Assembly (NCBI GenBank): GCA_008632985.1 | Contig: QPGO01000173.1 | Location: 124,001 to 161,501, forward strand | Length of the DNA: 37,501 nucleotides | Direction: 5' to 3' | Source of the DNA: Psammoneis japonica | Taxonomy: Eukaryota | Part shown: in pieces, positions 1,900 through 31,964 of the stretch | Layout: every line of letters begins with the position of its first letter | Position numbering within the stretch: position 1 is the stretch's first letter | Program-made: the position numbers and the translations under genes | The notes under the pieces: model-generated | What the model was told of the DNA's origin: nothing | Database searches by the model: none | Seen by the model: the letters and a program-made list of their open reading frames with translations, nothing else

Positions 1900-3421
1900 A
1901 TGTCGACCTTTCTCTTTACTTCCGAATCTGTCAATGAGGGACACCCTGGTATGTTCACTCTTTTGTGTGTGTATTGAAAAGGATTGTGGTGGAGATTGTT
2001 GATTTTGTTTTGTACCAAGAAAATACCCCTCCTCGTCGTGTGGCATGTTTTCGTCTCGTTCCGCCGTCTCGTGCATGGGCATGCGTTGTTGGCTATTTTT
2101 GTGATTATATTTGCAGTTACAGAGGGTAACTTTCACACACACGTTGATTGTAGTTGAATACGCATACAAAAAGGCCACTGTCGCATCAATAGTGTAGTTT
2201 TTCTTGCGCAACTTGAAACACGACGGGTACCTTTCTCTCCAACGTTCGTACTTGAACAACAACGTTCAAACAAATCATTTCACTCACTCACACACACTCC
2301 TCTTTCTCTACACAGACAAATTTTGCGATCAAGTGTCGGACGCTGTCTTGGACGCATGCATTGCCGGAGACGAATCGTCTCGTGTCGCATGCGAAACGTG
2401 TTGCAAGACGGGCATGGTGATGATTTTTGGTGAAATCACCACGGCCTCGACCGTCAATTACGAACAAGTCATTCGTGACGCCATCAAGGACATTGGTTAT
2501 GATGATCCCGCCAAGGGATTTGATTACAAAACGTGCAATGTCATTGTGGCCATTGAAGAACAGTCACCGGATATTGCTCAATCCGTCGATGCCGTCAAGG
2601 TGGAAGACATTGGTGCCGGTGATCAGGGCATTATGTTTGGGTATGCCACGGATGAGACGGATTCGTACATGCCCTTGACGCACATGTTGGCCACATCGAT
2701 CGGGTCCAAGTTGACGGAAGTCCGCAAAAAGGGAATCTGTGAATGGGTCAGGCCCGATGGCAAGACGCAAGTCACGTGTGAATACAAGTTGGAAAACGGT
2801 GTGCCCGTCCCACAACGTGTCCACACGATTGTCATTTCCACGCAGCATTCCGAAGACGTGTCGAATGAACAGATTGCGTCGGATCTCATGGAACACGTCA
2901 TCAAGCCGGTTGTGCCGGAAAAGTATTTGGACGACAAGACCATTTACCACTTGAACCCGTCCGGTCGTTTTGTCATTGGTGGTCCTCACGGCGATGCCGG
3001 TTTGACGGGACGAAAAATCATTATCGATACCTACGGTGGATGGGGTGCTCACGGTGGTGGAGCCTTTTCCGGAAAGGACACAACCAAGGTTGATCGCAGT
3101 GCCGCCTATGCCGCCCGTTGGGTGGCCAAGTCCCTCGTGGCGGGTGGATTGTGCAAACGTGCCCTGGTGCAGCTGTCCTATGCCATTGGTGTGCCGTACC
3201 CACTTTCGGTCTTTGTCGATTCGTACGGGACTGTCAAGGAGGGCATGACGGATGCCGATTTGACTGAAGTGGTCAACAAGAACTTTGATTTGCGTCCCGG
3301 ATGTATTATTCGGGATTTGGATCTCAAACGTCCCGTCATGCGCAAGACGGCCGCCTACGGACATTTTGGACGGGACGATCCCGATTTTACCTGGGAGAAG
3401 GTGAAGGAACTCAAGCTTTAG
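1900..3421 (+). CDS. metK: S-adenosylmethionine synthetase (MAT); exons 1900-1948 and 2316-3421, 367-nt GT-AG intron 1949-2315
   Basis: Exon 1 reads [17 protein letters not shown]|gtatgt and joins cag|AC AAA TTT TGC GAT (DKFCDQ). Signature motifs [14 protein letters not shown] and GGGAFSGKD are present; stop TAG at 3419-3421. Confidence 0.97.
2100..2137 (+). promoter_or_regulatory. Putative intronic hairpin containing a METTL16-like TACAGAG motif
   Basis: TGTGA..AGTTAC-AGAGG-GTAACT-t-TCACA: nested inverted repeats around TACAGAGG (2118-2125), preceded by an acceptor-like ttgcag. Function is inferred only. Confidence 0.4.
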
Positions 3422-3450: not shown

Positions 3451-3679
3451 GAAACAATAAAAAAAGTAAAATGAGGTTGTGTGTGTTTCAAAAAAAAAAA
3501 AGTGATTCTTCTCTCAATAGAGTTTAATAGCGCTGTTTATCGTTGGTGCCGTCTTGCTTTGTTTGTCTCTCATCACATTCGAATGATTTTTACAATGTTC
3601 TCGGGCCGTACGGCAAACGCAAAAGACTTGTTTTGTTCTTTGGTTCAAAAAGACAAAAGTAGCAGTTCTCTGTTCTCTA

Positions 3680-3775
3680 GTGGAGAGAGACGAGCGGGCT
3701 TTTTGTGCATGACCAAGACATGTGGGAGCAGGGGGCTCCGTCTCTGCATCGTGGTAAGGCACTCTAGTAGAGCAC
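3680..3775. repeat. Short dispersed repeat, copy 1 (related to 14590-14718), at the left edge of hypermutated block A
   Basis: tggagagagacgagcgggctttt ... cagggggctccgtctctgcatc ... aaggcactctagtagagca matches, in the same order, tggagagagacagcgcgggctttt ... caggggtctccatctccacatc ... aaggcaaaactctagagca. Confidence 0.5.
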
Positions 3776-6700: not shown

Positions 6701-9330
6701 CACCTGTCACATGCCAGAAGTGAAAAACAAAGCCAGCAAGAAGTGCAAGCAAAGGGTGAGCAAGATGTCAAAGTGAGAGCAAGGGACACACAAAGAGGTG
6801 CAAAACTGACAGCAGCAACAAGGGCATTGAGAAAGCAAGAACATGCAGCTGCACTGCAGTGTGCAACACTGCATTCTTTCATGTTCTCTGTTGTTTGTGC
6901 CAAACATGGGTGATGAAGTGACAAAAGACAAGCACAGTCAGGAGAAGCAGTGATTGCAACCACCACAGCAATGACCAGGAGAGAGCAGCGCCAAGAAGGA
7001 CAATCTTTTCAACGATGAATGGCAAGAAATCAGAGGTCAGCAATGTTGATGAGGGCAGTGTTCCAGCGCAACAGGACAGCAGGGCCAGTGAGAAACACAA
7101 GGTGAAAAAACAGCTGTCCTGCAGCTCTGTTGCAGTGCTCTTGTGACGTGCCATTGCATTGCATCTCATGCACCAGAACAATGACAAAGCAAAGGAGGAG
7201 GATTGCAGTGGTGGCAAGAATGTCACAAATGTCTTTGATGGCCACTCCACAGCATCAGGGCAAAGGGCATTGGATGGCTGTGTTGCTTTCCAGGTGGGTG
7301 CCAAAAGAGACCCTCCTGACTTCAAAACCATGCACAGCATGAAAAATTTCTTCGAAACCCTGGGAGGGTCTGTGCAACATTTGACATGGTGCCTTGAAAG
7401 GGCCACAAAAATGTTGCACAAGCAATCAAGGGTTGTGACCCAGGTGAGTTAAAGGCCAACAAATTGTGCTTTTTGTCTGATTGCACCTGAGATGGTGCAG
7501 GTTTTGGTGTCTTAGTGCAAGTGAAATTTGGCAGTCACCAAGGATGTCACACCACAAAATGTTGCGCAATGTTGTGCTGCAAGACACAGTGGAGTGCTGC
7601 ACAATGTGATGTGCTGGTTGCCAAGCAGTGCAGAGTGCAACACACATGTTGTTGAGCAAGCATCAAAAATGCTCAACACAAAATGTCATGCAATGGAGCA
7701 TGATGTGCTGCAATGAGATGTGTCGCAACTTTGCACCACACATGCCTTTTTTCCTTCTTTTTGTCATGAAGTTTGCTGCTGTTGAAAAAGAGTGCTCCAC
7801 ACTTCAAAGAAACAGCAGGTCACAGGACACAAGAGCTTCGCAAACACCTGGAAATGCAAGGGATCATTGGAGCTCTGCAAGAGAAAGATCAAACTTTGTG
7901 CAAATCACTGGAAAAAATGTGACAAGCACCTTTCACAGCATGACAGCTGTTTTTTTGAAACATTGCTGCCATGTCCTTCACAGCAGGCAACATGTGGCAA
8001 CACCACCGCTGCAATGAGAACATGGGTCATGTGTGTGTGCCAAAAAACAACCACCCAGCCCTCTGTCAACACACACTTTCATGCACTCTGTGCACTCCTC
8101 AATGCAATGAAGCAGCCCTTGTTCCATGAGTCCTTGTGTGAACAGAGGAAAAGATGACACAGAGCACACCGTGCAACAAGGTTGTTGGGGCCATTGTTCC
8201 ATGTGCCACCACACCACCCTTTGTCTGCTGCCCTTTCTGCCCATCCCTGGGGCACCCTGAGGTGTGGCAGAAGAGCAACTGTGAAAATGTTGTGTGGCAT
8301 CACAGTGTGTGGCAACATGCTCTCCAGCCCTGTTGGGCCGCAGAATTCCAGGCGCAAGCTCTGCAGCAAAGTTGCCCAGCAGTGAATTTTGCCAATGACC
8401 GCTGACAGAAAACAGGCAATTTTGTGAACAGAAAAAACTCCTTCATGCTTGAAGCACATCATTTCCGCTTTGCCTTGCTGCACTCTTCAAATGCACCAAA
8501 GACTGCACCCAGCCAGTGTTTTTGATCCCACAAAATCGTGAAGGCGAGCCTTTGGCTTTTGGCAGCTTTGCAAAATGGGGAGCGTGAAACAACTTTGTGG
8601 AAGATTGCAGGTGGAAATGTGCATGTGGCACATTGTCAAAAAACACTGACACCACAGTGCAGCAGTGTGAGGCCTCACCTCCAGAGCTGGCTCGGAGCAC
8701 GTCGGGCATTGAGCGCCGTGCATCTCAACAGTGCACTGCATTGCCTGCTGCCTCAATGTCACACAAAGGCACACCTTTCTCCATGTGTTTGGAGATGCAA
8801 AAGCAGCCTGCAACCATTGTTTGGTGCAGGTGGCTGCATTGCACAGGGGGCACCACACTGCGGGTTTGTGTGGCAAGAAATCCCGCAAAAGCTCCAAGCT
8901 TTGCCAAGCAGGGTTGGGTTGCCCCCTTTTCCAACACAGCAGCGTGCAAGAGCTGAGAGAGCTTGGGTTTTCCTGCTCTTGCAGCACATGTCCAGTTGAA
9001 AAGGGGCAAGCTGCTTTCCAGAGCAAGAGTTGGGGGTTGGAGGAGGAAGAGCACCTTTGCCTCGCCGTGTGGCGCAACAGAGAAGTGCCGTGATGCCGCG
9101 CCATGGTGCACGAGTGGCTCTGGTGTTGCGATTTCAAATGCTGTGCTCCGATTTCAAATGCTGTGCTGTGATCACTGTACAGTGCAGGAAATGCCGGCAC
9201 AGTGCATGACATAAAGCAGAAAGATGAGTGAGGATGAGGCTCAGGCCCGGTTCACCACTTGGTTCAGCAGAAATCAATTGCCCTCAACATCTTGAAGACC
9301 TCATGATGTGGGTTCAGCGATTCACTGACT
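3700..9330. other. Hypermutated block A: TpA- and CpG-depleted, TG/CA-rich decayed sequence (probable transposon or gene relics)
   Basis: No TA found by eye between ~3815 and 6186, and few CGs. ORFs in all six frames lack Tyr and are rich in Cys/His. The origin family is not recognisable. Boundaries are approximate. Confidence 0.85.
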
Positions 9331-9735
9331 GTTTACTTAGGATTCCCTATTTCTGGAAAATGTCTTCTGTCCATTCAATAAATAATGTCAATTGTCTTGC
9401 TCTGATCTGAGACATTTCTGGGCTATATGACATTATTTGTAATCATTTTCAAAACAACATCACATGATCGTCATCGGCAATCCTTTCTTTCCTTTTTTCT
9501 CATCACGGTAATTTAGCGGCCTCCTCGTCTCGTCTCGACTCTACTGTATGGTTTGTTTTGGATCCTCCTTGTCGCCTTATTCTGAAGTCTACGTTGCTCA
9601 GTTCACAGTTTGGAGTTCACACCATTCCCGGATATTTACATGGGCGATAAAAGGAATCTATTACAGTACAAATTCCCTGCTTTTCGCTCTTCGAAACGAC
9701 CTACATTTACGGCTGTTCAGCTGTTCAGCACGAGG

Positions 9736-12141
9736 ATGAAGGTCATCCCTTCACTGTTGCTTGTCGCTGCTGTGTCTGTGTCCCTCCATCTGCCAACGAC
9801 GGTTGCTGTTGCTTCCGAGGAGGATACGACCTTGCAGTTTGTCGGAAGACATGAAACACATCCCTTTCGTTTCCCACTTGGTCCATGTCAAGGGCATTGT
9901 CGAACAAGTAAAGACTGCCACGTAGGACTTTCGTGTCTATCCTACAATGGTGAAGAGCAAGGTGTGCCGGGATGTAAAGTTGTTGGAAACAACGGTTTGG
10001 GACGAAACTATTGTTCATACCCTGTACGAAACACTAGTTCCATAGAGAAGCCTCCACCGCTTCTAAAGTCATTGAAGAATGTGGAAGCTAAGCCAATGCA
10101 TCCACTAACTGTCGTGAAATCATCAGAGGCCCGTCCTCTTGGTCTTTGCCAGGGGCGCTGTTCCGGTCATGAAGACTGTAGATTTGGCTTGAACTGTTTC
10201 AGGAGACGAGGAGGCCAGCCAGTACCAGCCTGTAGTGGAAACGATAAAACGTCGCGCAGTTACTGTTTCAAGCCCCTTCAGGGTGTTCTAGTGAGACGTG
10301 GAGTCAACGGTGTACCCGAATCGGCTTTCTCACTGAGAAAGTGCCAAGGACACTGCGCTGGAGATGCGTTCTGCGGCCTGGGACTAATTTGTTTCCGGCG
10401 AATCGGAAAACAAGCTGTTCCTGATTGTCGTGGCAACGGTATACTTGGTGTCAATTATTGCACCGTTCCCACTGTTTCAAACACCTTGGTTCGTGTTGTG
10501 GAAAAAAGTCAAGTCCGCCGAGGAGGACAAGCGCTGCTTGCAGAGTGTGAAGGAGAATGCCTCCTGGACAGTCATTGCAAAAAGGGACTTCGATGTTTCA
10601 AACGTCAATCCAGTGAAAGCGTTCATGGTTGTACTGGCCAAGGTATTTTAGGTGGTTCCTATTGTATCAAGGATAAAAGAACAGGCACAGAGAAAGAAAA
10701 TAACAGCAAGAAGCCAGAAGATAAAAAAGACAATGTTGATTCAATCAGTCATCTCGACAATGCTGGCCGATGCACCGTTGCCGCACCTTGCTCAAAGTGC
10801 CAAGGGGATTGCGCCGGCAGCAATGATAAATGCAAGCGAGGATTAATTTGTTTTTCCAGGACAACAGATCACAGGATCCCGGGGTGTGCAGCCCGTGGTG
10901 TGTCCGGTATTGATTATTGCTCTGTTCCACCAAAGGACAAGCCGGTAACATATGTGCCTGGCAAGCTCTCCCACGTAGAAGAAGGCTTATTGCTCTCCAG
11001 TGGTCTGACGGCCCGTCTCATTGCCACGAAGCATCAACCAGTCAAGCTGGAGCACAATGGAAAACTGTCCAAAATAAGATTTCACCCAGCTGCAGATGGT
11101 GCCGCCGTATTTGCGAATAAACAGACGGGTGGTTGGAAGTACGTATCCAATGCGGAAAGCAGAATAACAGGAGGTGTGGGTGCAATTGAATTCGATGCTC
11201 AAGGTAAAGTCATTGGCTATGAGAGGCTGCTGTCTGGAAGCCAGAGAAATTGCGGTGGAGGCGCCACATTCTGGTCTACTTGGCTTTCCTGTGAAGAAAT
11301 AGAAGGCGGACAGATTTGGGAGGTAGACCCATTCGGAAAGCACCCACCAAGAAAGACTATCATCGGAGTCAAGGGTGGAGACACGTATGAGTCTGCTGCT
11401 TACGATAATCGGAAGCCTGAAAGACCAATCTTTTACGTCACCACTGACAATAAACGCGGGCCTGTTCTCAAGTTCACACCGGACAGTGAGGTGACTTCAA
11501 AAGCATTGAAAAGCAACGATTTTTCGCGGATTTTGCACTCAAATGAAACCGGCACTGCAAGAACCGAGTTCCTTGTACTTCGACCTAACAAGAGGAAAGC
11601 TAGCAAAGAAGGTACCTTTTCCTGGACCGAGGATTTGATAGCAGCTCGCAAGAACGCGTTTCAGGAATATTCCCAATGTGAAGGCATCGATGTTAGAAAT
11701 GGCATTGTCTACTTTACCTGCAAAAGGAATGCTCATTTATTCATTTTGGATACCGACCGAGGCACCTACACACGAGAATCAACAAAACAAGGAGCCTTCA
11801 ATGGAAGCCCCGATCAAGTAGCGAGAGTTCTCGGGGGGAATGAAAGTGATGCAATCCTTTATTTTTGCGAAGAAACGGCACCAAATGGTCAGGACTGTGG
11901 AGTGCACGGTCGAGACGGCAAGGGAAATTATTTCACTATTCTCGAAAATTTCGGTCACAGACCTGAGCTGGCTGGGGAAGTAACTGGTTTGGCGTTTTCT
12001 CCCGACAACATGCGAATGTATGTTTCCTACCAGAAACCAGGATACATTTTTGAAGTCAAGCGACTCGATGGCTATCCCTTTGGAGGTCAGCGATTGGACA
12101 TCAAGCACGGCACCACTGTGCTGCGGGAAATTAAAATTTGA
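9736..12141 (+). CDS. phoX: Secreted PhoX-family alkaline phosphatase with five N-terminal frustulin-like Cys-rich repeats
   Basis: Signal peptide MKVIPSLLLVAAVSVSL. Five repeats of C(Q/E)GxC..C..GLxCF.R....VP.C.G....YC. C-terminal PhoX motifs DGAAVF, YVSNAE, NCGGG.T.W.TWLSCEE, YESAA, EGID and EVTGLAFSPD..RMYVS.Q. Confidence 0.85.
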   Translation: MKVIPSLLLVAAVSVSLHLPTTVAVASEEDTTLQFVGRHETHPFRFPLGPCQGHCRTSKDCHVGLSCLSYNGEEQGVPGCKVVGNNGLGRNYCSYPVRNTSSIEKPPPLLKSLKNVEAKPMHPLTVVKSSEARPLGLCQGRCSGHEDCRFGLNCFRRRGGQPVPACSGNDKTSRSYCFKPLQGVLVRRGVNGVPESAFSLRKCQGHCAGDAFCGLGLICFRRIGKQAVPDCRGNGILGVNYCTVPTVSNTLVRVVEKSQVRRGGQALLAECEGECLLDSHCKKGLRCFKRQSSESVHGCTGQGILGGSYCIKDKRTGTEKENNSKKPEDKKDNVDSISHLDNAGRCTVAAPCSKCQGDCAGSNDKCKRGLICFSRTTDHRIPGCAARGVSGIDYCSVPPKDKPVTYVPGKLSHVEEGLLLSSGLTARLIATKHQPVKLEHNGKLSKIRFHPAADGAAVFANKQTGGWKYVSNAESRITGGVGAIEFDAQGKVIGYERLLSGSQRNCGGGATFWSTWLSCEEIEGGQIWEVDPFGKHPPRKTIIGVKGGDTYESAAYDNRKPERPIFYVTTDNKRGPVLKFTPDSEVTSKALKSNDFSRILHSNETGTARTEFLVLRPNKRKASKEGTFSWTEDLIAARKNAFQEYSQCEGIDVRNGIVYFTCKRNAHLFILDTDRGTYTRESTKQGAFNGSPDQVARVLGGNESDAILYFCEETAPNGQDCGVHGRDGKGNYFTILENFGHRPELAGEVTGLAFSPDNMRMYVSYQKPGYIFEVKRLDGYPFGGQRLDIKHGTTVLREIKI

Positions 12142-12639: not shown

Positions 12640-15600
12640 ACTGAAAGAACCCTTCACCATTGTCTTGACAAAGCATTTCAATCAGCGTCTAGAAGGGCCA
12701 CAGCTTGCATTTCCACCGCAACTGCCCCTGGCCAATGTCTTTTGAAGTCAGTCTCCTCCACTTGAACTGACTCCATTGGCCTGGTGAACCATCTGGCAAG
12801 ATGGGTGTGGTTGGATGGGTTGTTGTGGAGGCAAGTGAGTTCTTCCTCGATCTGACCATCTGCAATGTTGTTGACAGTCAGTCTTGATCCAGAAGCCTCC
12901 AATCTTGGCCACTCACATGCAGCGCCACCACATGTCCCATGCCAAATGATTTTGCAGTTGTTGTGCCAAGCTGGAAAGCCAGCACAAACTGGTGTTCCAA
13001 AGCTCAACAAATTCACAGCAAGCCTGGGCTGCCATGCTGCTGCACACTCTGCTCTTGCAAAGAAGCTGCGTGCAAGAGAACTCTCGCCTGAGAATTCCTG
13101 CACCCTCAAAAACTGCTTGTGCCTGTGGATGGCAATTGGAAGTGGGTGCAGGTGTGTCCTGTTCATCATGCCATGATTGAAGTGACTGCACACACCCCCT
13201 GCAGCACAGGAAGGAATGAGCCACCAGTTGGTTGGCAAGCCATCATTTCAAAGTCCAGGCTTCTTTTGGTCCAAGAGGGCTGTGCAGCACAAGACAAGAT
13301 CAATGCCATCTTTGGATTCTCTGCAATGCAGACAAACTGGGCTTTTGAGTTCCTTGCAACAATGGAGGTTTTTGTCAGCTGGGGCAAATCCTGTGCTCTG
13401 CCGTGGCTCCGCCAGACTCTTCCAAAGGTGCAGCATTGGCTTGCTGCCTGATCTAGAGCTTCCCAATTGACTGGCAAGCATTGCAGCAGAGACTTCACTT
13501 TTGTGCCAGTGCCTTTGGCCAGTGGTCTGCACAAATGATTGGGGTGGACTGCTGGTGCCAGGAGGATGTGAGAGTTTTGCCACCAAGCTTTGCTGGCCAC
13601 ATGATGTCATTGACTGCAGCTCAAAGGGTTGCATTGTTGCCTTTCCTGGCTGTGCTGCAAGAGCATCTCCCAACAAGCTTTTGCAAGGAGATCCATTTTG
13701 GTGCTGGAACAACTTGTGAAAGGGGATGTGCCTGTCTCTCTGTGACCCTCAGCCCCTTGGCTGGTGTGCCACAAGCACTGCAGGAAGCTCCCAGACAACA
13801 GAACAAATTGCACAGACAGGTCAGATCACAGTGCTTGCAAGTTTTGGATCACTGTGCCAAATTGCAGAACAAGCATGCTCCAAGACTGAGGTCGCAACAG
13901 TTGCAGCCCAGAGTTGCCTTTCCTCATCTCATCTCAGCAAGTGCAGCAACAACCTCTGTTGGAAAGGTGGCTGTTGGAACATCAGGGTCAGAGGCAGTTT
14001 TCACAGGACAGAGACAGACAATGTTGCGGTGTAAGATGCACTGACAATTGTGTGGACAATCTGACAAGGTTGCACTCACAACTCAGGCTGAGTTGTGGGT
14101 CTTGTGCCAACTTTTTAGCTTCTGCACCCAGCTGACATGGCAACAGCAGTCAGCATCATTGGGGTGGTTGCAAGCCACACAGTGAGTTCAGGGTCAGCGA
14201 GGCTGTAAACGTGTGCCACTTGACAAGCCATGAAACTCCAACAGTGACTGGCTGTGTGCACCAAAAATGCCCCCAAGCTTGCCCCAATGTGCAGTGGAAG
14301 GTTTTTCATGCAGCAGGCCAGAGTCTGGCTCACCCCTCTGTGTCTGTGGAAGTTGTGCCTTTGCCAGGTGACAAAATTTTGCCTGAAGCCACCGCTGCAT
14401 TGTTGCTGCAAGGGGTTGTCCATGGCAGACACATGCTGACAATGCAGGCATCATCCCATCATTGTGTGTTGATGTGTGCTGCAAAACAAAAAGGGTTGGT
14501 GGCTCATGTGGGTTGAGGGTGCACTTGTACTCATTTTTGGTTGCTTGAACACATTTTTTGTTGCTCATGTGGGCCTGGCAGCTCTCTGCCTGGAGAGAGA
14601 CAGCGCGGGCTTTTTTGAAGGAAAGATCAAGAAAGAGACTTTTTTGGGGAGACGTTGGCCTGGATCAGGGGTCTCCATCTCCACATCTCTGGAGTGACAA
14701 GGCAAAACTCTAGAGCAGCTGTTGATTGTGGGCCCTCGCTCCAGGCCCTGGCTCTGTGAAGGATGGGTTCAGATGCATCAACCCTCACTTCTTTGCTGCC
14801 TTCAGCAAGACAAGCACAGCCTCTTTGGAGCAACAGAGGAAGCCAAGTCTAAGTTGCATGGAAGAGCAAAGAAAACAAACATGCAATGTCAGAAAAACTG
14901 GAAGTGGGCATGGGAAAGTTGGTTGCAGCAGCAAAGAATGAAGACAGGAGAAAAAGCACTGGAGGCAATGCAAGAGATCAAGGTGACTGAGCAAAGCACC
15001 CTGAAAACTTTGCAAGACTCGAGTCTTTGCCCAAGATGCAAAGCTCAACATGGTCAATTGGAACATGGAAGATCTCAAAAATCACCCAAGGAAGTCTTGG
15101 CAAGCTCAAATGACACACACAAGCAAGAGCTTGCAATCCAGAGCGCACCCCACCGGGGCAGTTTTGAGCACAGAGACAGTTCTCGCAACACCCGAAACAG
15201 CTTGGACCTCATGAAAACTGTGGCAAATGTTTGCCTGCCAATGTGATGAGAAGCAAATGGCAAGGGAGCAGCAACAAGAAAGAGGAGGTTCAGAGAACAA
15301 GAGCTCCAATGTGTCCAAGCAGCGGCTCCTGGTCAGCTGAGATTTGGCCCCCCAGCAACGCTCCCAGGCAATTGCAGGTCATGCTCAATGTCATGTGTGT
15401 CAACAGCAAAGAGGACAAAGAAGAACAGAAGCATTGCCCATGTGCTGAAAATCAACTCCTGGAAAGCCAAATGATCTGATGGGGGTTTGAAGGTCCGCAC
15501 ATTTTGGTGCTGACGGGAGAGGGAGATGTGTGATTTGTTGCTTGTGTGTGCATCAGTGTTCGAGTTCCAACACAGGCACTGCTGCATGTTGACAATCATT

Positions 15601-15840
15601 TGTGCATGTGAGGATGGATGGTGTCAGCAAAGGGAGGAGTCCTCCACTCTGTTGCTTTGGCATTTGAGTCAATTCATCAAGCAGATTGACAGTGCTGTCA
15701 AACCCCCACTTCTTTGAGGCAACATTGAGACTTGAAGATTGTGCAGCGTGTTTCGTTGTATGATGAAAAGATTCTTCATCGGAGCAAAGAATCACCATCC
15801 TTGTCATTCTCTCCTGCAAAAAGACTGCCAAGGTCAGACT
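12640..15840. other. Hypermutated block B: TpA- and CpG-depleted decayed sequence
   Basis: Same signature as block A: nearly Tyr-free ORFs and rare residual TA (e.g. ctag at ~13453 and ~14710). It contains protein-like relic segments on the minus strand. Boundaries are approximate. Confidence 0.85.
14590..14718. repeat. Short dispersed repeat, copy 2 (related to 3680-3775)
   Basis: Three colinear matching segments shared with 3680-3775. Confidence 0.5.
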
Positions 15841-16075
15841 GCTGCGCTAGAGAATAGATTGCACCTCGAACCTCGAACCTCGACCGGTGATGTGTGATTT
15901 GCGCGAACGCGCGAGAGCACGATCGCGCGACACCGAGTCGGGGCAATATGAGCGCCAGCGGCGCGCTGGAAGATTTCAAATTTTGCGATTTCCATTTCGC
16001 CAAAGCCAAAGCGATCGTGTTTTCTTTCATTGCTGTTGTTGCAACCTGCAAAGAAATAATACCGACGGTGGTGAA

Positions 16076-17116
16076 ATGCGAAAGGTAGCAAAACAAGCCT
16101 TGATCTATAGTGTGACTGCCGTTTGCTTGGGAGGATATATTCTTCGTTTTCAATCAAGTCAAACGAACGCGTTGAATCAATCGATAATACTACAGAACAA
16201 GAATGTCACGAATGTCACGTCAACATTCGTTCCGTTTCCGCACAGATTTCTCCCGTATGGAATAGATGCTGCTTGTCGTTGGTCCACAACAACCGCAAGC
16301 AAGCAATATAGAGCAATGGACGATTTTTACTGCAACAGTTACAGACATCTCGACACGATACAAGTAGCAGCGTTAAACGAGGGCATTTGCTTGCCGACCG
16401 ACAAGGTATTTAGGTCGAGGCTTCATCTTTTTTCCTCCCAAGAAGCCATCGACTGCCTCTCATCAAACAAAGATATTCGAGTAGCGGTATCTGGAGACAG
16501 CTACAACATTCAACTTTATATCGGACTGATTGACATTCTGTTGGAGAATCCTAGCAATGAAGAAATAATGAATGCTTCTCATAGACGAGAGGTTCTGAAA
16601 CTATCCATGCGGGCCCTTCACGATCATTGGCAGCAAAACAAGTCATATCCCGCAGTGGGCTATGTTTGCAGCGCTGAATGCTACGGACAGGGGGGATCGT
16701 TATTTCATCTCGAGTGCTCGAACTGCATCAATTCCATTTTACAAAACAAGACCAGCTTCGCGGCAATAGTGGGTGCTGGCATTCACATGTTAGGGTCGCT
16801 TAAAAGCAACATTACGAGATTTTCTCACGAAATCAAAGCGTTCCTTGACAGCGCGCCAAACGTTGTATTCAACTCTATGCCGTGTTATCAAAAGCAAAAA
16901 GTACCCGAAGAATACCGGCCTGATGTTGGCAGGAACGGACAAGCTTACCATCAAACTCTACCGCTGGTCAAGAATCGCCCATTTCTCGACTTTTATCAGT
17001 TAACAAGAGCTTGCTACATGGACAACTGCTCAACGGACGGGGGACATAGGGCTAGGTATGTGAATCGGTGGAAAGCACAGCTACTACTCAATACGTTATG
17101 CCAAGTCACGTGTTAG
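16076..17116 (+). CDS. Type II membrane protein with SGNH/PC-esterase-like GDS and DxxH motifs (putative acyl esterase or O-acyltransferase)
   Basis: N-terminal hydrophobic anchor (ALIYSVTAVCLGGYIL), several N-x-S/T sequons, VAVSGDS and a C-terminal TDGGH; normal TA/CG content. Start placed at MRKVAK within ORF 15887..17116. Confidence 0.6.
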   Translation: MRKVAKQALIYSVTAVCLGGYILRFQSSQTNALNQSIILQNKNVTNVTSTFVPFPHRFLPYGIDAACRWSTTTASKQYRAMDDFYCNSYRHLDTIQVAALNEGICLPTDKVFRSRLHLFSSQEAIDCLSSNKDIRVAVSGDSYNIQLYIGLIDILLENPSNEEIMNASHRREVLKLSMRALHDHWQQNKSYPAVGYVCSAECYGQGGSLFHLECSNCINSILQNKTSFAAIVGAGIHMLGSLKSNITRFSHEIKAFLDSAPNVVFNSMPCYQKQKVPEEYRPDVGRNGQAYHQTLPLVKNRPFLDFYQLTRACYMDNCSTDGGHRARYVNRWKAQLLLNTLCQVTC

Positions 17117-17371
17117 AACGGATTGATTAATGTTCGACATCTAAAACAACGAAAGCATTCGTGGTGCAAACACATCACTGCAATGCTAAAAAGTGTTCGC
17201 GGTAACCTTGTTTTAGTATGTCTCGGGCCAGTGATAGTTCACCGCGATCGTTATTTTCCCATCGCTCAATCGAAACAGAGCTCGTTGTCATCATAATATA
17301 GTGTGAGTTCATGTTGTATGTACTGTACAAAATTAACTGGCTTTGCCTCCTACCGTACTCTAGCTACCGTA

Positions 17372-18450
17372 GAGTCCACTTGAACTCCAATCACGCCGTC
17401 TCCGTCCGCACTGCCGGCGGGTCCACATGCCGTTTCGGTGTGTCGAAGCGTCATTTTCTCGGAGGCAACATTAGAACTTAAGCGTGCATCAAAGCAGGGG
17501 ATGAGGAAGAGCAAGGCCAAATCAGCCAAATTGAATGACGTGCAACAGCTTCCACTTTCCTTGATTACAGTCTTCATTGTGGCACTTCTAACGTGTTGTC
17601 CATTGCATGGTGATGTTCTCCATCTGCCAACTTGGACAGAGACACAATGGCCACACAAAAGGACAATCCTGACAAGACAGATGCCAAACAACCAAAATCC
17701 CAGTTTTCTGGATAGATTGGCAAAGAACCAGGGAGACAAAAGGCACAAAGCTGGCAATCATGATTGCCATGATGAAGGACAAATTGAGGCTGGCATCATG
17801 TGAAGAATCCAACAAGTCCATGTTGGCCACAAGGAGAAGAATCATGGCCCATGCCCAACAAGGAAATTTCAACCAAAGCTGATTCTTTGCCAAAGCCAAG
17901 TGAGCCCATCAAGCGCATCTCTAGACAGTGGGGTGCAGAGAATGACAAAAATGTCAATGAAGCTCAGCGCACTTGCCAACTGGCACTGAGTTTCAAAAGA
18001 AAAATGTTTGTTGTGTCTCCTCCAAGATGCTCTGTTTGAATTGTGCATGTGAGCAGCAGGAGGCACATGAAATGAGAGGCAACAACAAAGCACGCAGTTC
18101 TCAACCCCACACACTTCTTGCCTCTGTCATCTCACCATGGCAGCACAAAGATTGGCACACAAGGAGGCAACAAAAGACAAAGAAAAAATGTGTGGAGCCA
18201 AGCACAAGCTCATCTGGCAAGTTGTTTGACAAGAAACTGTCCCCAAAGTGGCACAAACCTCTTTCTTTCTCAGTGAAGACAACAATTTGTCACTGTTGGC
18301 TCCATCGCCAGCAGTGTCGGCTGCACTCTGATCTCCTTTTCAGCTTGAGCAAGCCAGCCACCAAGATTGCCTGCTCTCACAAGAGAGCATCTTAAAAGTC
18401 ACATCATTGGTTTGCCAGGTGTCACACCCATCAGTGGGAAAATGTTAAAA
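17372..18450 (-). pseudogene. Hypermutated partial copy 1 of the MFS transporter gene (3' part)
   Basis: Translation fragments FANLSRKLGFW, MILLLVANMDLLDSS and DGDGVIGVQV match 23180..23812. It has indels, and the intron donor is destroyed (cttacctc -> cttgcctc). Confidence 0.92.
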
Positions 18451-18484
18451 CCAACTGTGGCACAATGCTGAAAATTTCCTCAGC

Positions 18485-18566
18485 GGGCAGGAGACACGGG
18501 GCTGGATGTGTGAATTGGTGGGAGGTGCAGCTGCTTCTCAACATGTTGTGCCAAGTCATGTGTTAA
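18485..18566 (+). pseudogene. Hypermutated remnant of the 3' end of the SGNH-like gene
   Basis: ctgcttctcaacatgttgtgccaagtcatgtgttaa (18531-18566) aligns to ctactactcaatacgttatgccaagtcacgtgttag (17081-17116). Confidence 0.85.
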
Positions 18567-18839
18567 AAAAAGATCAATCACCACTCAATGTTCACAAAAC
18601 AACAAAAGTTTTTGACTCATGGTGCAAATCTTCGTGCCACTGCAGCGCTCATGGCTGCCTTGCTTCATCACACCTTGGGCCAGCAACAATTCTGCACCCC
18701 ATCCACCATGGTCATTGTTCCCTCCCACTCAATCAATCAGAGCTTGTTGTTGTCTTTCCAGAAGTGAGAGTCAATGCTGCTGGTGCGGCGTGCACAAAAT
18801 TGAGACACTGCCTCCTGCTGCGCACTCTCTGGCAGCTTG

Positions 18840-19770
18840 CACACTTGAGCTCCAGTCACGCTGTCTCTGCCCATGCTGCCAGCAGGTCCATGTTCCACAT
18901 TGATGTGTCAAAGAGAGCCTTTTCTTTCTTGGCTGCAATGTCAGAGCTTGAGTGGCATGAAAGCAGGGGACATGGAAAAGCAACACCAAATTGGCCATTT
19001 GGAATGGCATGCAATGGCTTGCAATTTCCTTGACCACAGTCTTCCTTGATGTGCACTTCAAATGTGCTGTCCACAACATGGTGTCATTCTCCATGAACCA
19101 AGTTTGAGAGAGGAACAATGTCCCAAATGCACAAAAGAGGACGGACCCAACAAGATGCCACAAAAACCCAAATCCAGTTTTCTGGGTGGGTTGGCAAAAA
19201 AGCAGGGAAACAAAAAGGCTCAAAATTCTGAACAACAGATGAAGCTGGCAACCGTGGTTGCCATGATGAAAGGAAGACACAACTGGGGCTGTGTTGCATG
19301 AAAAATCCAGTGTGTCCATGTCTGCCACCAAGAGGAGAATCATTGGACCCATGCCCAAATTTGCAGCCATGGCTGCTGCTGCACCAACAAGCACCCAGGC
19401 AGCAGTGCAGCTGCAGCAGTGGGCTGCAACAAAGCTCAGCACACTTGCCAATTGATGACAAATTTTAAAAGCATGCTTTTCCAAGCTGCTTGAGCTGCAA
19501 AACATCAATGGCAGGCATGCGTTGAAAAGCAATGCCAACACAAGTTGACTTGTCACACAGACTTGCCTTGTGGTCACTGTGGCAATGCAAAGGTGGGCAC
19601 AAAAGGAGGCAACAAGGAAGAGCACACACTGAGCATGGAGCACAAGCTTTGTTTGCCAGTTGTTGATGAAAAACTGTTTCTGTGAAGAGCGGACCTGTTT
19701 CTTTCTTGACCAAGGTTGGCAATTTCTTGCTGTTGGCTCTGCCAGCATGGGCAGCATTGTTTTCTTCTGA
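18840..19770 (-). pseudogene. Hypermutated partial copy 2 of the MFS transporter gene
   Basis: FLVASFCAHLCIATVTT vs intact FLVTSFYANLYIATVTT; LGMGPMILLLVADMDTLDFSCN vs LGMGQMILLLVANMDMLDSSYD. The intron sequence is retained. Confidence 0.92.
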
Positions 19771-21358
19771 TCAGCTCCAGGTGGCACAAAAATGTGCAAT
19801 CCATCAAATGTCACATTTTGCCTGCTTGCAAGCTCCCTTCAATTTAAGTTTTTTCCAAAACCAATCTCTCTGTGCAGCAATGCCAGGAAAATGTTTTTGG
19901 CATCATGGCGTTTTGTGTTTTTTTTTTTGAGTTTTTGGTTGTTGAAAGAGGAGTTTTTGAGCCAGCCACTTTGGAGAATTTGTCAACTTCCATGTGAGAA
20001 AAAAGCTTTGCATGGGACTTTTTTCATTGTTTTGGGAGCTTGCAATTGTTTTCTGCCTTCACTCTTTTTACATCACATGTGTGTTGAACTTTTGCGTGCA
20101 CCAGAGTGCTCATTTCATCTCAGAGTGCAAAAAGAAAAGCCCACCGCCCCTGTTGCTGCACTCTTTTTTTGCTTCACTGCTGCCACCCACATGACACTGT
20201 TCTGTGTGAAAGAAAAAGAAATGTTCCTCAGCCAGCTGCCAATGCAAACAGGCACCAATCCCAACAAAAACCACTCTTTTTGATGAGAAAAGTGCCCCTG
20301 TCCAACAGTGCTGCCGCTGCTTGCCCCCCCCCCCCCGTCTCATGCTGCAGCTGCAAAACAGCCACCTGAACCCCACCGGGCCACACCTCTGACAACTCTC
20401 CACTGCAACTTTTTCTCCCATGACAAAGCCACCGCGCCACTCCTTGCAGTGTGGCGACCCCTTTGCTGATGTTTGATCTGCAAGCTTTTGAGCATCATTT
20501 TGTGTGACAACATTCATCACAGAAGCAAGAAAAGCATCTTGAACCATGTCCAAAACAAACACCCTTTCTTGTGCCAACACTCCAGAGCAACAGGGTGTTG
20601 CATTCATGCGCGCATTGACAATGCCCGAAACTGCTGCTCCAATTGCTGCCGCTTGTGGTTTGAAGTTGCTTGTGAGTGCAGAAGCTTTTGTGGGGCAGTG
20701 CACAAGCAACCAAAACAGTGGCCAGCACCAAGCTGAGGACATGAAAGCTTTTGTTCATTTGCTGGTGATGGCAATTTCCAGCTCCCCCCAACAAATCAGA
20801 TGTGAACCCCCCAAAGAGAAGTGCTCTCCAAAGATGTGTGAAGAGGCACTGAATCTGCCCAAAACTGCTGTGTTGGCCACCACGTGAAATTCTTGGGAAA
20901 GAACATTAGAGCAGGAAATTTTTTTCTTGAGGTTTGTGTTGCATTTCGGCAATTGTTGGCCAGCCACAGTGGTTTCGCCGTGTGTGGCCAAGAAGACGAC
21001 ACACCATTTTGATCTCTGCTGATTTGGGTGGGAGCAAGAAACACGAGTTGGCAAATCTTGGTTGCTCTGTTGTTTGCCAGAGGCCAAAAACTCTAAATGG
21101 CTTTTGTCATTTGGCACTGGTTGTTTCAACTTTTTCACTGATTCTAGCTGTGCCATCGTGGCAAACAGATGATCATTCGTTCTGGGCATGACAGTGTCGA
21201 GAGATGCCGCCGTAACGGCTGAACAACGGTCGGCATCTTCACACTGCTTCCCAGCTGTTTTAGCTTCATTCATTTTTTCGTGTCACTCCCCGCTCTAGCC
21301 TCGCTAACCTTTAGGAGTACGGTATCACGTTGCTCCTCAGAAAGTCAAAATACACAAC

Positions 21359-22615
21359 ATGTCGTTATCGGGTGATAACGGATTAGAAAGAGATTTGCTC
21401 TTGGTCGGCATCGGAAACGTGGAACAAGTCGCATGGTCGTCGCATGTTCCGCCTTTGCCAGAACCACGGAGCGACCACGCGGCGGTCGCAATAAGCAATC
21501 AAAAATACATGATTATTGGTGGCAATGACGGAAACAAACGTTTATCAAGAGTATTAGTTTGCAATCTTGAGTCTAAAGAATGGGAGCAATTGTCGTCATG
21601 GCCTAATCTCAATCGTGCCCGTAGTCATCATGCGGCAGTTTTTACACAACACAAAGTTTATGTATTTGGGGGACTGGATGGAGGTACTCTTGATTCCATC
21701 GAATGCTTGGATTTATCTCTCAATGAACCAAAATGGCAAATACTCAAAGCAAAATTGACTTGCACACGATACGGATGCACAGCGGCTGCAGTGGGAGAAC
21801 GATATGTGTACATCTTTGGTGGATCGGGCAAAACGTCGGTAGACATTTTAGACACAGCGACGGACGAAATTCTGCAAGGTCCACCCATGACTACCGCACG
21901 ATGGGGAGGTGCAGCGGAAGCTGTTGGGACTAAATTATATGTTGTTGGTGGGGACAGTGGGTATGGTGAAGAAAATTTGAATACCATCGAGTGTCTAGAC
22001 ACTGACCTGAAGAGATGGAAATTATGTCAAGCAAAACTGTCAACACCCAAATGGCACATGCGAGTTCAAAAGTGGGGTGACTCTATCATAATTGTCGGTG
22101 GCGAAGACAATGACGGCGATAAGTTGTCTTCGGTGGAAGTATTTGATACGAATCGAGATGTATGTATTTCGCTGCCCGATTTGTCTATGGCAAGATCTAG
22201 TCTTGCCACTGTAGTGCTGGGCAACAAGGTGTATGCCATTGGTGGCCATGACGGTACAAAAGAAGTGGCTTCAGTGGAATGCCTTGTCCTACCAAGAGCG
22301 GATCCAAAAGCTCGCCATTTTGCGGTTGTGCAGGCAAGAATCGCACTCGAGTCCCAATTCCATGACTTGGACGATTCATCTTCTGCAGAGTATGAAAATT
22401 TACTTGGCAATCAAGAGGAACAAATTTACAAATTGGAAATGGAGTTAGACAAATTATCGTGGTATCCGTTTGGAAAAGCGGATCAAAAGCAACATATCCA
22501 GAAGTCCTTGGAGAAACTTAAGTTGAAGGCTGCATTGCAGAATCTACAGCTTTTGCAAGAGCAAATTTCTGCCGAAATAAAAAAGTCGACGGAAACTGAT
22601 TCTTCAGACAGTTAA
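21359..22615 (+). CDS. Kelch-repeat (six-bladed beta-propeller) protein with a C-terminal coiled coil
   Basis: Six repeats of the type R..HAAV....YxFGG.....S.E..D....W in an uninterrupted 418-aa ORF. Confidence 0.9.
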   Translation: MSLSGDNGLERDLLLVGIGNVEQVAWSSHVPPLPEPRSDHAAVAISNQKYMIIGGNDGNKRLSRVLVCNLESKEWEQLSSWPNLNRARSHHAAVFTQHKVYVFGGLDGGTLDSIECLDLSLNEPKWQILKAKLTCTRYGCTAAAVGERYVYIFGGSGKTSVDILDTATDEILQGPPMTTARWGGAAEAVGTKLYVVGGDSGYGEENLNTIECLDTDLKRWKLCQAKLSTPKWHMRVQKWGDSIIIVGGEDNDGDKLSSVEVFDTNRDVCISLPDLSMARSSLATVVLGNKVYAIGGHDGTKEVASVECLVLPRADPKARHFAVVQARIALESQFHDLDDSSSAEYENLLGNQEEQIYKLEMELDKLSWYPFGKADQKQHIQKSLEKLKLKAALQNLQLLQEQISAEIKKSTETDSSDS

Positions 22616-22738
22616 CTTGATGCCGAGATAGGAGGTGCCGTGTAGGTAGCTTGCGGTCGTTCATGATTTAATCCTACAAGGATCCAACGATAGACCTACT
22701 CTAGAGTATATGATGAGCACCGGTCGTTTCGGTCGATT

Positions 22739-22902
22739 TCAAACTCTACCGCTGGTTCAGAATCGCCAATTTCTCGACTTCTATCAGTTTACAAGAGCTT
22801 GCTACATGGACAACAACTGCTCAATAGACGGGGGGCATAGGGCTAGTGAATCGGTGGAAAGCACAGCTACTCCTTAACACGTTATGCCAAGTCACGTGTT
22901 AG
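22739..22902 (+). pseudogene. Non-hypermutated 3' fragment of the SGNH-like gene (third copy)
   Basis: Closely matches 16951-17116, with a 5-nt deletion (gctaggtatgtgaa -> gctagtgaa) and a 3-nt insertion. TA and CG are retained. Confidence 0.9.
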
Positions 22903-23179
22903 AAATTTGGAAAAGATTGAGTTTTGTTCGGATTGAAAACCACGCAAGGGTTTGATTCGTGGCGCAAATCTTCACATCACTGCAACGCTCAAAGTCGTCA
23001 TGGTAAAACATTGATTTATGATATCTCTGGTCTGTGAAAAACCCTGCATCCCGTCAACCGCGATCGTTGTCTTCCCCTCGCTCAAATCCAACAGACCAAC
23101 AGAGCTCGTTGTCTCCTTAGTATGAATTCATGTCGCGTGTGTAGTATGTACAAAATTAACTGAAGTTGCGTACTATATA

Positions 23180-24767
23180 CTAGTACACTTGAACTCCAAT
23201 CACACCGTCTCCGTCCGTACTGCTCGTGGATCCATATTCAGAGTCGGTGTTTTGAAGAGTCTTTTCCTCGGCCGCAGCAATGGAACTTGAGCGTGTATCA
23301 AAGTAGGGGATAAGAAAGAGCAATGCCAAATTCACCAACTGAATGACGTGCAACAGCTTCCAATTTCCTTGATCGCAGTCTTCATTGTGGTACTCTTCAA
23401 ACGTATTGTCCATGATGTGGTGGCATTCTCCGTCTACCAACTTGGAGAGAGGCGCAATGGCCAATTGACAAAGTCCAGACGCACAAAAGGATAATCCCGA
23501 CAAGATGCCAAAAAAGCGAAATCCCAGTTTTCTGGATAGATTGGCAAAAAAGTAAGGAAACAAAAAGGCTCGAAATGCTGCATAACAGATAAAGCTGGCA
23601 ATCATGATTGCCATGATGAAGGGAAAATCGGGACTGTCGTAGGAAGAATCCAACATGTCCATGTTGGCTACCAAGAGGAGAATCATTTGTCCCATACCCA
23701 AGGAAATTGCAACCACGGCTGCCGCGCCAAAACCGACCGAATCCAACAAGTATCCGGATAGTGGAGCGCAGAGAATGGCGGCGGCATCAATAAAGCTCAG
23801 CGTGCTTGCCAATTGATGCTGAGTTTCAAAAGTAAACTGTTGTGTGTCTCCAAGCTGTTCGAATTACGAAACGTGAATAGTAGGTATGAGATGACAAGTA
23901 ATGATAAAGCAAGTTGGTTCTCAACACATACACTTACCTCTGTCGTCACCGTGGCAATGTAAAGATTGGCATAAAAGGAGGTGACAAGAAAGAATATACT
24001 GAGCCGAATGTAAGCTCCGCTGGTGAGTTGTTTGATGAGCGACTGTTCCTGAAGTGGTGGATCTGTTTTTTCCTTGACTGAGGATAGCAATTTCTCGCTT
24101 TCGGTTTCTCCAGCGTCGGCCGTCTTATTTTCTTCTTCAACATGAACGTGTTCATACGGTGTGTCGGGCCAGATGCACAACGAGGTAATGGCCGAAAGTG
24201 CCACCAAGATTGCCTGTCCGTAAAAGAGCGTTTCAAAATCCACGTCATAGGTTTGCCAAATCACATCCATCAATGGGAAAACGGCAAAACTGAGTGTAAT
24301 ACATTCACCGACAAGTCCCATGACAAAATATCGATGGCCGGAAAGAGATTGGCTGTATGAATAACTGACGTCTGCACACCCGGTCCACCAAACGCCACCA
24401 TGGAAATTGCTACCGCAAATTGCCGAAAAGTGGTTGCTTGACCAAACAACAAACACCCGACCGCCACGAGGGCATTGGACACAAAGGACGCTGTTCGAGG
24501 CCCACGGTGATCTAAAATGGCTCCCAAGAAAATGGGTGACAAGTAATTGGAAGCTGCCGCAAAGCCGTACAAGGTTGTGGTTTCATCCAAGGTGAGACCC
24601 GCTCCACCACTGACTCGTGTTGCTGTCAAGATGGAACCCGCAATTCCAGCCCATCCAACCACCAAACCAGCGCCCAAGGTGATTTGGAGCATTCCAGTCG
24701 CAACCAGTATCCAACGTACCGTGTGCGAGGCGGGTAACGGAGCTCCTTGTTTTTCAGATGATGTCAT
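23180..24767 (-). CDS. MFS transporter, SLC43/LAT3/FMP42-like; intron 23855-23937; apparent 1-nt frameshift near 24338
   Basis: Multiple TM segments with MFS motifs GAILDHRGPR and GYLLDSVG. Splice GAG|gtaagt...aacag|CTT gives ...VTTE-LGDTQQF... The frame changes at ANLFP/GHRYFVMG with no room for an intron. Confidence 0.8.
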
Positions 24768-25187
24768 CTTGGACGAATCTGTTTTCCTCTACAGTTGTAG
24801 TAGTCGGAACGGAGAGCACTTGAGTGGGGATATTCGAACTTTAGCTCTCTCTTTTGTACCGTATTGACAAGTTGACGGCGATCCTTTGTTTCTTCCTGTT
24901 CCAAGTCAGGAGGTTGTGAAGATGGGAGATCTTTTTCGCGGAAGATTTTGACACGGGAAGAAACGTGAATGGAATTGTTTCAATCACGAGTTGTGAACGA
25001 TGACGTCATCCTCATTTTTGTTGCGCGGGCGCGCGATCGGTCTGCGGCTTCCCGGATCACCCGGATCGCACCATGAAAACGGCAACATCGCACACATCAT
25101 CGCCACAACTCCGGTCGTCGGTCGTTGCTGTGAAACAGAAGTAGGTAGAGCGAGGCCTTCCAAGCAAGGGCAGCCTGTCGATATCAC

Positions 25188-31852: not shown

Positions 31853-31964
31853 GTTTGTACTGGGCAGGTACTTTCTACGTTTGTACTGGGCAGGTACTTT
31901 CTACGTTTGTACTGGGCAGGTACTTTCTACGCTTGTACTGGGCATGTATTTTCTACGCTTGTAC
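31853..31964. repeat. 26-bp tandem repeat, about 4.3 copies (gtttgtactgggcaggtactttctac)
   Basis: Three identical copies (31853-31930), one diverged copy (31931-31956) and a partial copy; no spacers. Confidence 0.95.

Follow-up and report, generated by a model that had tools for sequence, protein, structure and literature searches.

Joint loss of TpA and CpG from three domains of a diatom contig, and its likeness to the TpA hypermutation of Bigelowiella natans

Natural, motif-directed rewriting of DNA from A:T to G:C has been reported once, in a 2026 preprint on the chlorarachniophyte alga Bigelowiella natans (Mettrop et al., bioRxiv 10.64898/2026.01.13.699255). According to the accessible text of that preprint, 231 of the 302 nuclear point mutations in mutation-accumulation lines fell in integrated giant-virus and virophage regions. 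All but one of these 231 were A>G or T>C, and all 230 lay on TpA. The rate was about 1000-fold above background, 124 clusters of TpA-poor windows rich in CpA and TpG were found genome-wide, and the authors propose a homologue of ADAT2. Here we describe a 37,501-nt stretch of the diatom Psammoneis japonica (GenBank assembly GCA_008632985.1, contig QPGO01000173.1, positions 124,001 to 161,501 of the forward strand; hereafter the window, numbered from its first letter), in which three domains between intact genes have lost nearly all their TpA and CpG. A first-pass annotation of the window, made from the letters alone, had suggested TpA-directed A>G hypermutation acting on duplicated DNA and knew of no described mechanism for it; the B. 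natans preprint overtakes the latter statement. Full-text literature searches turned up no account of TpA erasure from diatoms or any other stramenopile. The locus is best filed as TpA hypermutation of the B. natans type in a second, unrelated algal lineage, here at saturation, with CpG erased alongside, a T-A-pyrimidine (T-A-Y) motif and chromatin-like edges.

The process is of the same kind as that in B. natans. A>G and T>C transitions fall on TpA, on both strands, in discrete regions beside normal DNA; the footprint is a depletion of TpA with a gain of CpA and TpG, there in clustered 1-kb windows, and an adenine deaminase is proposed. The two cases also differ. B. natans belongs to Rhizaria, whereas the host here is a stramenopile. 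Its viral insertions keep many TA, given as 3.3% of dinucleotides in the accessible text, whereas here 0.1-0.3% remain and copies of a host gene were hit. We find a preference for a 3' pyrimidine, while that text gives no flank beyond TpA, so a 3' preference is possible there too. Finally, activity was measured live in B. natans and is here deduced from its products.

Other known systems share part of the pattern. Repeat-induced point mutation (RIP) of ascomycete fungi is likewise regional, saturating and dinucleotide-directed, acts by transitions, kills gene copies and leaves a compositional island. However, RIP makes TpA from CpA, whereas in our domains the observed/expected ratio (O/E) is 0.02-0.04 for TA and 1.8-1.9 for TG+CA, so that the direction is opposite, as had been proposed. 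In addition, RIP needs duplication and mutates both partners, while here the intact paralogue (X, below) and positions 16951-17480 of one copy (Y1) were spared. Decay of 5-methylcytosine (5mC) at CpG, known from vertebrates, plants and diatom repeats, yields CG>TG and CG>CA equally, and so do the decayed copies described here (8 and 9 in Y1, 24 and 22 in Y2), but that process alone leaves TA untouched. Hyper-editing of double-stranded RNA by metazoan ADAR also gives clusters of A>G, preferentially after U. ADAR, which acts on RNA, in addition prefers A on the 5' side and G on the 3' side; in our copies a preceding A is not preferred and a following G is disfavoured (A>G fraction 0.36 at TAG, below 0.64 at TAC and 0.59 at TAT). 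We rejected ADAR-like editing on this 3' rule and on the finding that Y1 passes from intact to erased within contiguous genomic DNA, which leaves no place for an RNA intermediate. TadA and ADAT2/3 convert A to inosine, read as G, after U or T. A TadA-8e variant is described in the accessible text as editing A within a 'YAC' context (PMC13109818), and TAC is the hottest triplet here. Natural members of this family act on tRNA, however, and activity on DNA was engineered or, in the accessible text of the B. natans preprint, reported for only a few ADAT2 proteins (bioRxiv 10.64898/2026.01.13.699255).

Loss of TpA and CpG, its direction and its context

The domains were delimited from a table of dinucleotide O/E in 500-nt sliding windows and from a listing of the gaps free of TA and of CG:

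3813..9178, no strand: erasure domain A, 5366 nt, between the SAM synthetase and PhoX-like genes
12690..15759, no strand: erasure domain B, 3070 nt, between the PhoX-like gene and the open reading frame (ORF) 15887-17116; holds a short dispersed repeat
17530..21094, no strand, left end approximate: erasure domain C, 3565 nt, comprising the decayed part of copy Y1, the entire copy Y2 and about 1.2 kb of unassigned DNA

TpA and CpG are both nearly absent from these 12,001 nt, a third of the window. Together the domains keep 24 TA and 114 CG, against about 489 and 652 predicted from the rest of the window. Domain A has 5 TA (O/E 0.02) and 48 CG (0.14), domain B has 8 TA (0.04) and 28 CG (0.14), and domain C has 11 TA (0.04) and 38 CG (0.19), with O/E of TG+CA at 1.88, 1.79 and 1.78, respectively. 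TA-free runs in domain A reach 2374 and 1665 nt, the longer of which would arise by chance with a probability of about 1e-42, given the TA frequency of the window itself. TG+CA make up 22.2-23.5% of the dinucleotides in the domains against 15.2% outside, while the fraction of pyrimidine-purine steps is 0.245 in A and 0.236 in both B and C against 0.247 outside. The loss of TA and CG is thus matched by the gain of TG and CA with the total of such steps unchanged, as expected of transitions from TA and CG to TG or CA. TG and CA are nearly equal in number in each domain (638/622, 351/336 and 380/412 in A, B and C), which indicates that both strands were struck alike. In addition, ApT is lower and GpC higher within the domains, as a general drift of A to G before pyrimidines predicts. 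The observation of the first-pass annotation, A:T>G:C transitions at TpA on both strands alongside decay of CG to TG or CA, is therefore confirmed, and the affected area is larger than the 17370..19770 to which it had been assigned.

The same 12 kb carry 54 stop-to-stop ORFs of at least 90 aa, 90-280 aa long and spread over all six frames. All frames carry long ORFs because TAA and TAG are gone and TGA is the sole remaining stop. Gene finders are likely to predict false genes in such TA-free domains.

The changes could be followed letter by letter in domain C, which holds two decayed copies of part of a transporter gene whose intact form lies in the same window. Copies were defined by self-BLAST and a three-way MAFFT alignment, with X as the reference for all substitution tables:

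23180..24788, minus strand: intact gene of the Major Facilitator Superfamily (MFS) transporter type, as ORFs; origin of the decayed copies
22739..24300, minus strand: intact paralogue X, made of the plus-strand coding piece 22739-22904 after the Kelch gene, an intergenic stretch and the 3' two thirds of the MFS gene
16951..18460, minus strand: copy Y1, intact over 16951-17480 and a decayed MFS pseudogene over 17480-18460
18479..19768, minus strand: copy Y2, decayed end to end, including the portion still intact in Y1

The last exon of the MFS gene has five homologues at 44-53% identity, all with a precomputed PF07690 assignment and one, from Seminavis robusta, named Major Facilitator Superfamily. 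X is normal in composition, its non-coding parts included (O/E about 0.6 for TA and about 0.8-1.0 for CG). By blastn, Y1 is 72% identical to 22739-24057 over 1392 nt, and Y2 is 70% identical to 23185-24136 and 67% to Y1. In purine/pyrimidine space identity to the intact unit rises to 83% for Y1 and 85% for Y2. The remaining difference of about 15-17% in that space, together with many indels, marks the decayed copies as old pseudogenes regardless of the letters at TA and CG. Among the lesions of Y2 are the change of Arg98 from CGA to TGA and the replacement of conserved Tyr by Cys or His; Arg is also found in place of Tyr in the decayed copies. The examples on which the first-pass annotation had drawn were all recovered. 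The 24-mer at 23291 differs from that at 17482 at three places, all TA>CA or TG. Between the 30-mers at 17081 and 18531 there are two TA>TG, one TA>CA and two CG>TG changes, plus one A>T transversion. The peptide FYANLYIAT of the intact gene (minus strand) reads FCAHLCIAT in the second copy, the minus-strand splice donor GTAAG is GCAAG in both decayed copies, and the third copy (22739-22902) carries the intact states.

Only 2 of 85 TA sites of X survive in the decayed copies, where 69 are now CA or TG, and 5 of 86 CG sites survive. Decayed Y1 keeps one of 30 TA sites (17 are CA and 10 TG) and 4 of 28 CG sites (8 TG, 9 CA); Y2 keeps one of 55 TA sites (24 CA, 18 TG and 6 CG) and one of 58 CG sites (24 TG, 22 CA). 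Other dinucleotides of X are kept at 35-85%. Per strand-site, A>G reaches 0.47 and 0.50 at TpA in the two copies against 0.11-0.18 at the other NpA (Fisher p 4e-9 and 2e-12), an excess over AA, CA and GA that had been anticipated. C>T reaches 0.43 and 0.44 at CpG against 0.07-0.18 elsewhere (p 2e-7 and 7e-10). Since a single strike destroys a TA site, a rate of 0.47-0.50 is the ceiling, and by our own estimate the rate per A at TpA is at least about 20-fold that at V-A-R sites (A after a base other than T and before a purine), a lower bound owing to this saturation.

Three independent lines of evidence polarise the changes. At 11 sites that are TA in both X and intact Y1, Y2 has lost 10; at 17 sites that are CG in both, Y2 has TG at 9 and CA at 8. 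Where Y1 and Y2 are both decayed, the same ancestral TA was resolved differently, one copy having TG and the other CA, at 7 of 22 sites, and the same CG at 8 of 10. Such unlike resolutions point to an unmutated ancestor and to independent strikes after the tandem duplication. Five outgroup MFS proteins side with the intact gene as well: of 19 amino-acid differences of the TA type, they agree with X at 11, with the decayed copy at one and with neither at 7, and of 14 of the CG type, with X at 8, with the decayed copy at one and with neither at 5. Paralogues within the window and outgroup proteins thus agree that TA and CG are the ancestral states. The polarity first proposed, loss of TA, stands, and the alternative that TG and CA are ancestral fails.

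The base following the adenine matters too. At TA sites the changed A is followed by C in 30 cases, T in 24, A in 8 and G in 6, whereas the spared A of the opposite strand is followed by A in 27, T in 16, C in 14 and G in 11 (chi-square p 2.5e-4). The A>G fraction is 0.64 at TAC, 0.59 at TAT, 0.36 at TAG and 0.21 at TAA. Away from TpA the fraction is again higher at N-A-Y (0.17-0.28) than at N-A-R (0.05-0.11). With respect to the 5' base, TpA alone stands out (ApA 0.08-0.24, CpA 0.05-0.28, GpA 0.10-0.24). Two further observations are free of the alignment. Surviving TA have the form Y-TA-R in 18 of 24 cases in the domains against 137 of 1040 outside (p 2e-11) and are mostly TTAA, CTAG and TTAG/CTAA, that is, sites that survive where neither strand presents T-A-Y; and TGC/GCA is over-represented in all three domains. 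The preferred target of the A>G process is therefore T-A-pyrimidine, a motif newly found here. The same test found no flank rule at CG sites (p 0.26). Surviving CG have G/C flanks in 45 of 114 cases in the domains against 264 of 1386 outside (p 1.5e-6).

Domain edges, origin of the erased DNA and read support

The domains occupy the gaps between intact genes and end 130-550 nt from their ORFs. Each edge spans 100-300 nt, and the genes next to them are normal in TA and CG:

2204..3421, plus strand: SAM synthetase gene (Pfam PF00438, PF02772, PF02773), intact, 392 nt left of domain A
9610..12141, plus strand: PhoX-like gene (Pfam PF05787), intact, with normal TA and CG, between domains A and B
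15887..17116, plus strand: ORF of 409 aa, open, with normal TA and CG, bounding domains B and C
21359..22615, plus strand: Kelch-repeat gene (Kelch families at E 1e-42), intact, 265 nt right of domain C

On its left, domain C begins at about 17485-17600, within the duplicated segment and roughly 370 nt downstream of the stop codon that ends ORF 15887-17116. In Y1 the opening 530 nt, although duplicated, were spared, 364 of them (17117-17480) beyond that stop codon, while their counterpart in Y2 is erased. On the other side, domain C extends about 1.2 kb past copy Y2 and stops at about 20900-21100, leaving 265 nt up to the start codon of the Kelch gene. When the window was compared with itself by BLAST in purine/pyrimidine space, nothing emerged as a source of domain A or B, only matches at noise level (up to 66 bits). 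Since X is spared, the edge falls inside a repeat and active genes are spared, targeting looks as if it follows a chromatin-like domain and not sequence duplication by a RIP-like homology trigger. At the right end of domain A, CG reappears about 120 nt before TA. A 20-nt unit containing CG is perfectly duplicated in tandem at that edge (9129-9167).

As to what the erased DNA was, domain C is made of copies of a host MFS gene. None of the 54 stop-to-stop ORFs of at least 90 aa in the domains reached the curated Pfam cut-offs; 29 of them lie in A and 18 in B, so that this holds for all 47 ORFs of A and B. ORF 6155-6619 in domain A found no protein when phmmer was run against 1.84 billion representatives; it had been picked by a purine/pyrimidine coding score trained on the genes of the window, a weak score that missed the known pseudogenes Y1 and Y2.

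Read support was taken from Logan k-mer contigs of a DNA run, from one study with three runs and no RNA run listed. These contigs (depth 27-65, the longest 315 kb) match 3500-5132 (1633 nt) and 14159-15490 (1332 nt) with no other letters; over 17749-19928 the contig shows 14 other letters and 4 gaps. The contigs over the two exact matches have about half the depth of the genes (27 and 33), which suggests that these parts may be haplotype-specific. The k-mer depth is 564 in 13717-14317 and 152 in 8308-8908, against about 50-60 over genes, and several different loose contig ends lie at 14089-14146; this depth and these ends point to the short dispersed repeat inside the erased DNA of domain B.

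At 5709-5710 and 7845-7846 the sole contigs available show TG/CA flips relative to the window, one being T>C coupled with G>A and the other C>T coupled with A>G. Each flip may be one ancestral TA or CG resolved differently in two alleles or paralogues.

Comparison with related loci was uninformative about other species. Among 80 metagenome loci fetched by the SAM synthetase, a filter for TA-poor, TG+CA-rich DNA let through no more than 5 windows, which came from two G+C-rich loci (58-75% GC), and the one close relative (83% identity, 6.5 kb) has normal TA and CG and no other gene in common with the window.

Proposed process and alternatives

We think it probable that the domains are silent DNA hit by an A>G process at T-A-Y together with CG decay, that targeting goes by chromatin, and that the likeliest mechanism is a deaminase of the TadA/ADAT2 type. 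The domains would be silent DNA in the nucleus of the diatom, made up of pseudogene copies, a dispersed repeat and DNA of no recognisable kind, in the gaps between active genes. Two transition processes have run in them almost to saturation. One changes A to G where T precedes and, preferably, a pyrimidine follows; acting on either strand, it turns TA into TG or CA. The other is the ordinary decay of CG to TG or CA. Active genes and a few hundred flanking bases are spared, as the targeting of chromatin domains would bring about.

The T-A-Y preference bears on the enzyme. tRNA A34 is always preceded by U33, and the natural site of E. coli TadA is U33-A34-C35. Among the mechanisms first put forward, the TadA/ADAT deaminase gains from this preference, whereas the WA>WG pattern of DNA polymerase eta (Pol-eta; W is A or T) loses, as ApA is no hotter than CpA or GpA. 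The enzyme would contact the bases 5' and 3' of a flipped-out adenine on one strand, as nucleic-acid deaminases do. We hypothesize that a deaminase of the cytidine deaminase (CDA) fold, drawn to methylated, silent chromatin, could convert adenine to inosine in DNA, which would then be read as G. The loss of CG would come from spontaneous deamination of 5-methylcytosine at CpG. This is the simplest explanation for it, since diatoms methylate CpG in silent repeats and genes (Hoguin et al. 2023, PMC9998398, and, for silent repeats, PMC12344493, each as far as its accessible text goes).

Several points weigh against this proposal. The enzyme, the link to methylation and heterochromatin and any role in defence are what we infer from the letters, and the process is read from its end state only. 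Substrates of eukaryotic ADAT2/3 mostly have a purine after A34, so that T-A-Y fits bacterial TadA better than ADAT2/3. CpG is erased together with TpA here, whereas the accessible text on B. natans never mentions CpG, and the two systems may differ. Pfam and phmmer gave no sign that domains A and B are foreign or transposon DNA. As for the reads, the sequencing platform of the supporting run is unrecorded, the run may be the assembly's own data, and at several places in domain A the sole covering contig differs from the window.

Among the alternatives, a duplication-triggered 'reverse RIP', in which machinery that senses homology mutates TA in repeated DNA, is the form in which the process was first proposed. 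We regard it as unlikely, even though the target seen in most detail consists of two tandem copies of a gene with a third copy 4-6 kb away and part of domain B is a dispersed repeat of depth 564. The part of the earlier proposal that made duplication the trigger did not hold: X is spared with its non-coding DNA, the opening 530 nt of Y1, present also in Y2 and X, escaped whereas the matching stretch of Y2 is mutated, the edge falls within the repeat unit, and domain C overruns that unit by 1.2 kb. Most of A and B, moreover, is at single-copy or half depth (27-80) with no source in the window, although diverged old copies elsewhere in the genome are possible. A single enzyme for both losses, such as a TET/JBP-type dioxygenase, seems improbable to us. 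Acting in silent chromatin, it would oxidise T at TpA to 5-hydroxymethyluracil (5hmU) or 5-formyluracil (5fU), mispairing with G to give T>C, and 5mC at CpG to 5-formylcytosine (5fC), giving C>T. 5-Formyluracil is mutagenic, and 5hmU and base J are biased to TpA. Both losses do occur in the same domains, with edges agreeing within 100-300 nt and equal strand symmetry, and both would be transitions of a 5-methylpyrimidine at a self-complementary pyrimidine-purine step. However, the flank preferences differ, the third base being read at TA (p 2.5e-4) and not at CG (p 0.26), and for this reason we retain a single mechanism only as a rival. Moreover, domain A regains CG at its right end about 120 nt earlier than TA, and A>G is raised at N-A-Y outside TpA, which a loose deaminase pocket explains more easily than a thymine oxidase specific for TpA.

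Error-prone repair, which we consider very improbable, would likewise couple CG decay and A:T mutation within the same domains. Here T:G mismatches from 5mC deamination would recruit mismatch repair with a Pol-eta-like polymerase, making A>G errors at WA. That pattern predicts a hot ApA, whereas ApA (0.08-0.24) is in the range of CpA (0.05-0.28) and GpA (0.10-0.24), and near-complete loss of TA (2 of 85 kept) with a strong requirement for a 3' pyrimidine is unlike the pattern of Pol-eta. An artefact of sequencing, in which modified bases (for instance 5mC in CG together with modified A or T in TA) are misread by a long-read base-caller, has scarcely any probability in our view. The unrecorded platform of both assembly and supporting run and the finding of the stretch in one study leave it some room. 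On the other hand, exact matches of k-mer contigs to TA-free DNA over 1.3-1.6 kb, at depth 27-65 and in contigs of up to 315 kb, are hardly expected of noisy long reads. Misread letters would also not account for copies that differ from X by about 15-17% in purine/pyrimidine space with many indels, for sites that are TG in one copy and CA in the other, or for the double changes TA>CG. Least credible of all is selection on composition, by which functional elements would avoid TA and CG, e.g. so as to keep clear of stop codons, nuclease sites or particular binding sites. DNA without TA has only TGA stops and long ORFs in all six frames, as such selection might produce, but domain C consists of transporter gene copies with a stop, indels and lost conserved tyrosines. 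The ORFs of the domains match no Pfam family, the one tested by phmmer matches no protein, and the change is strand-symmetric and independent of frame.

Returning to the proposal of chromatin-targeted A>G at T-A-Y with CG decay, it is tempting to go further, if tentatively, since we rate the following as possible and not as probable. Diatoms may have a chromatin-guided defence by DNA editing in which A>G at T-A-pyrimidine and decay of methylated CpG jointly erase TA and CG, which are all the self-complementary pyrimidine-purine steps, from silenced DNA; its enzyme would be a natural, sequence-specific DNA adenine deaminase. The TpA signature is also active in a rhizarian alga, so the system may be old and widespread in the SAR supergroup (stramenopiles, alveolates and Rhizaria). 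Such a defence would remove TATA-type and AATAAA-type signals, TAA and TAG stops, tyrosine codons and GTAAG splice donors from silenced DNA. Silent diatom DNA would then decay by erasure of TA and CG, and genome defence by mutation would extend beyond fungal RIP and animal APOBEC and ADAR. A second independent lineage at saturation provides a comparative handle on the enzyme, to which the window adds the refined T-A-Y motif and evidence that targeting is chromatin-like, with sharp boundaries next to active genes. A natural, motif-specific DNA adenine deaminase would also be of interest for base editing.

Neighbouring genes and other repeats

The best named relatives of the SAM synthetase are diatoms: a record of MMETSP0418 ('Astr…') at 88%, 'Nitzs…' at 86% and Achnanthes kuwaitensis at 83%; the best match, at 92%, is unnamed. 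The long ORFs with few introns are likewise in keeping with a diatom. ORF 15887-17116 matched no Pfam family. Its 3' end (16951-17116) doubles as the start of Y1, and its residues 342-389 are 71% identical to the short ORF 22650-22877 (plus strand), which immediately follows the Kelch gene. ORF 15887-17116 thus resembles a chimeric gene whose last ~50 codons were captured from the start of the duplicated unit.

Further to the right, 25188-27257 (plus strand) encodes phosphomethylpyrimidine kinase (ThiD) and thiamine-phosphate synthase (ThiE) domains in consecutive ORFs of different frames, probably a single fused thiamine gene interrupted by introns. At 31853-31964, in DNA of normal composition, there are 4.3 tandem copies of a 26-nt unit (96% matches). 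Finally, a repeat of about 100 nt occurs at 28779-28884 and 37405-37501 (82% identity, 8.6 kb apart), the second copy being cut by the end of the window.

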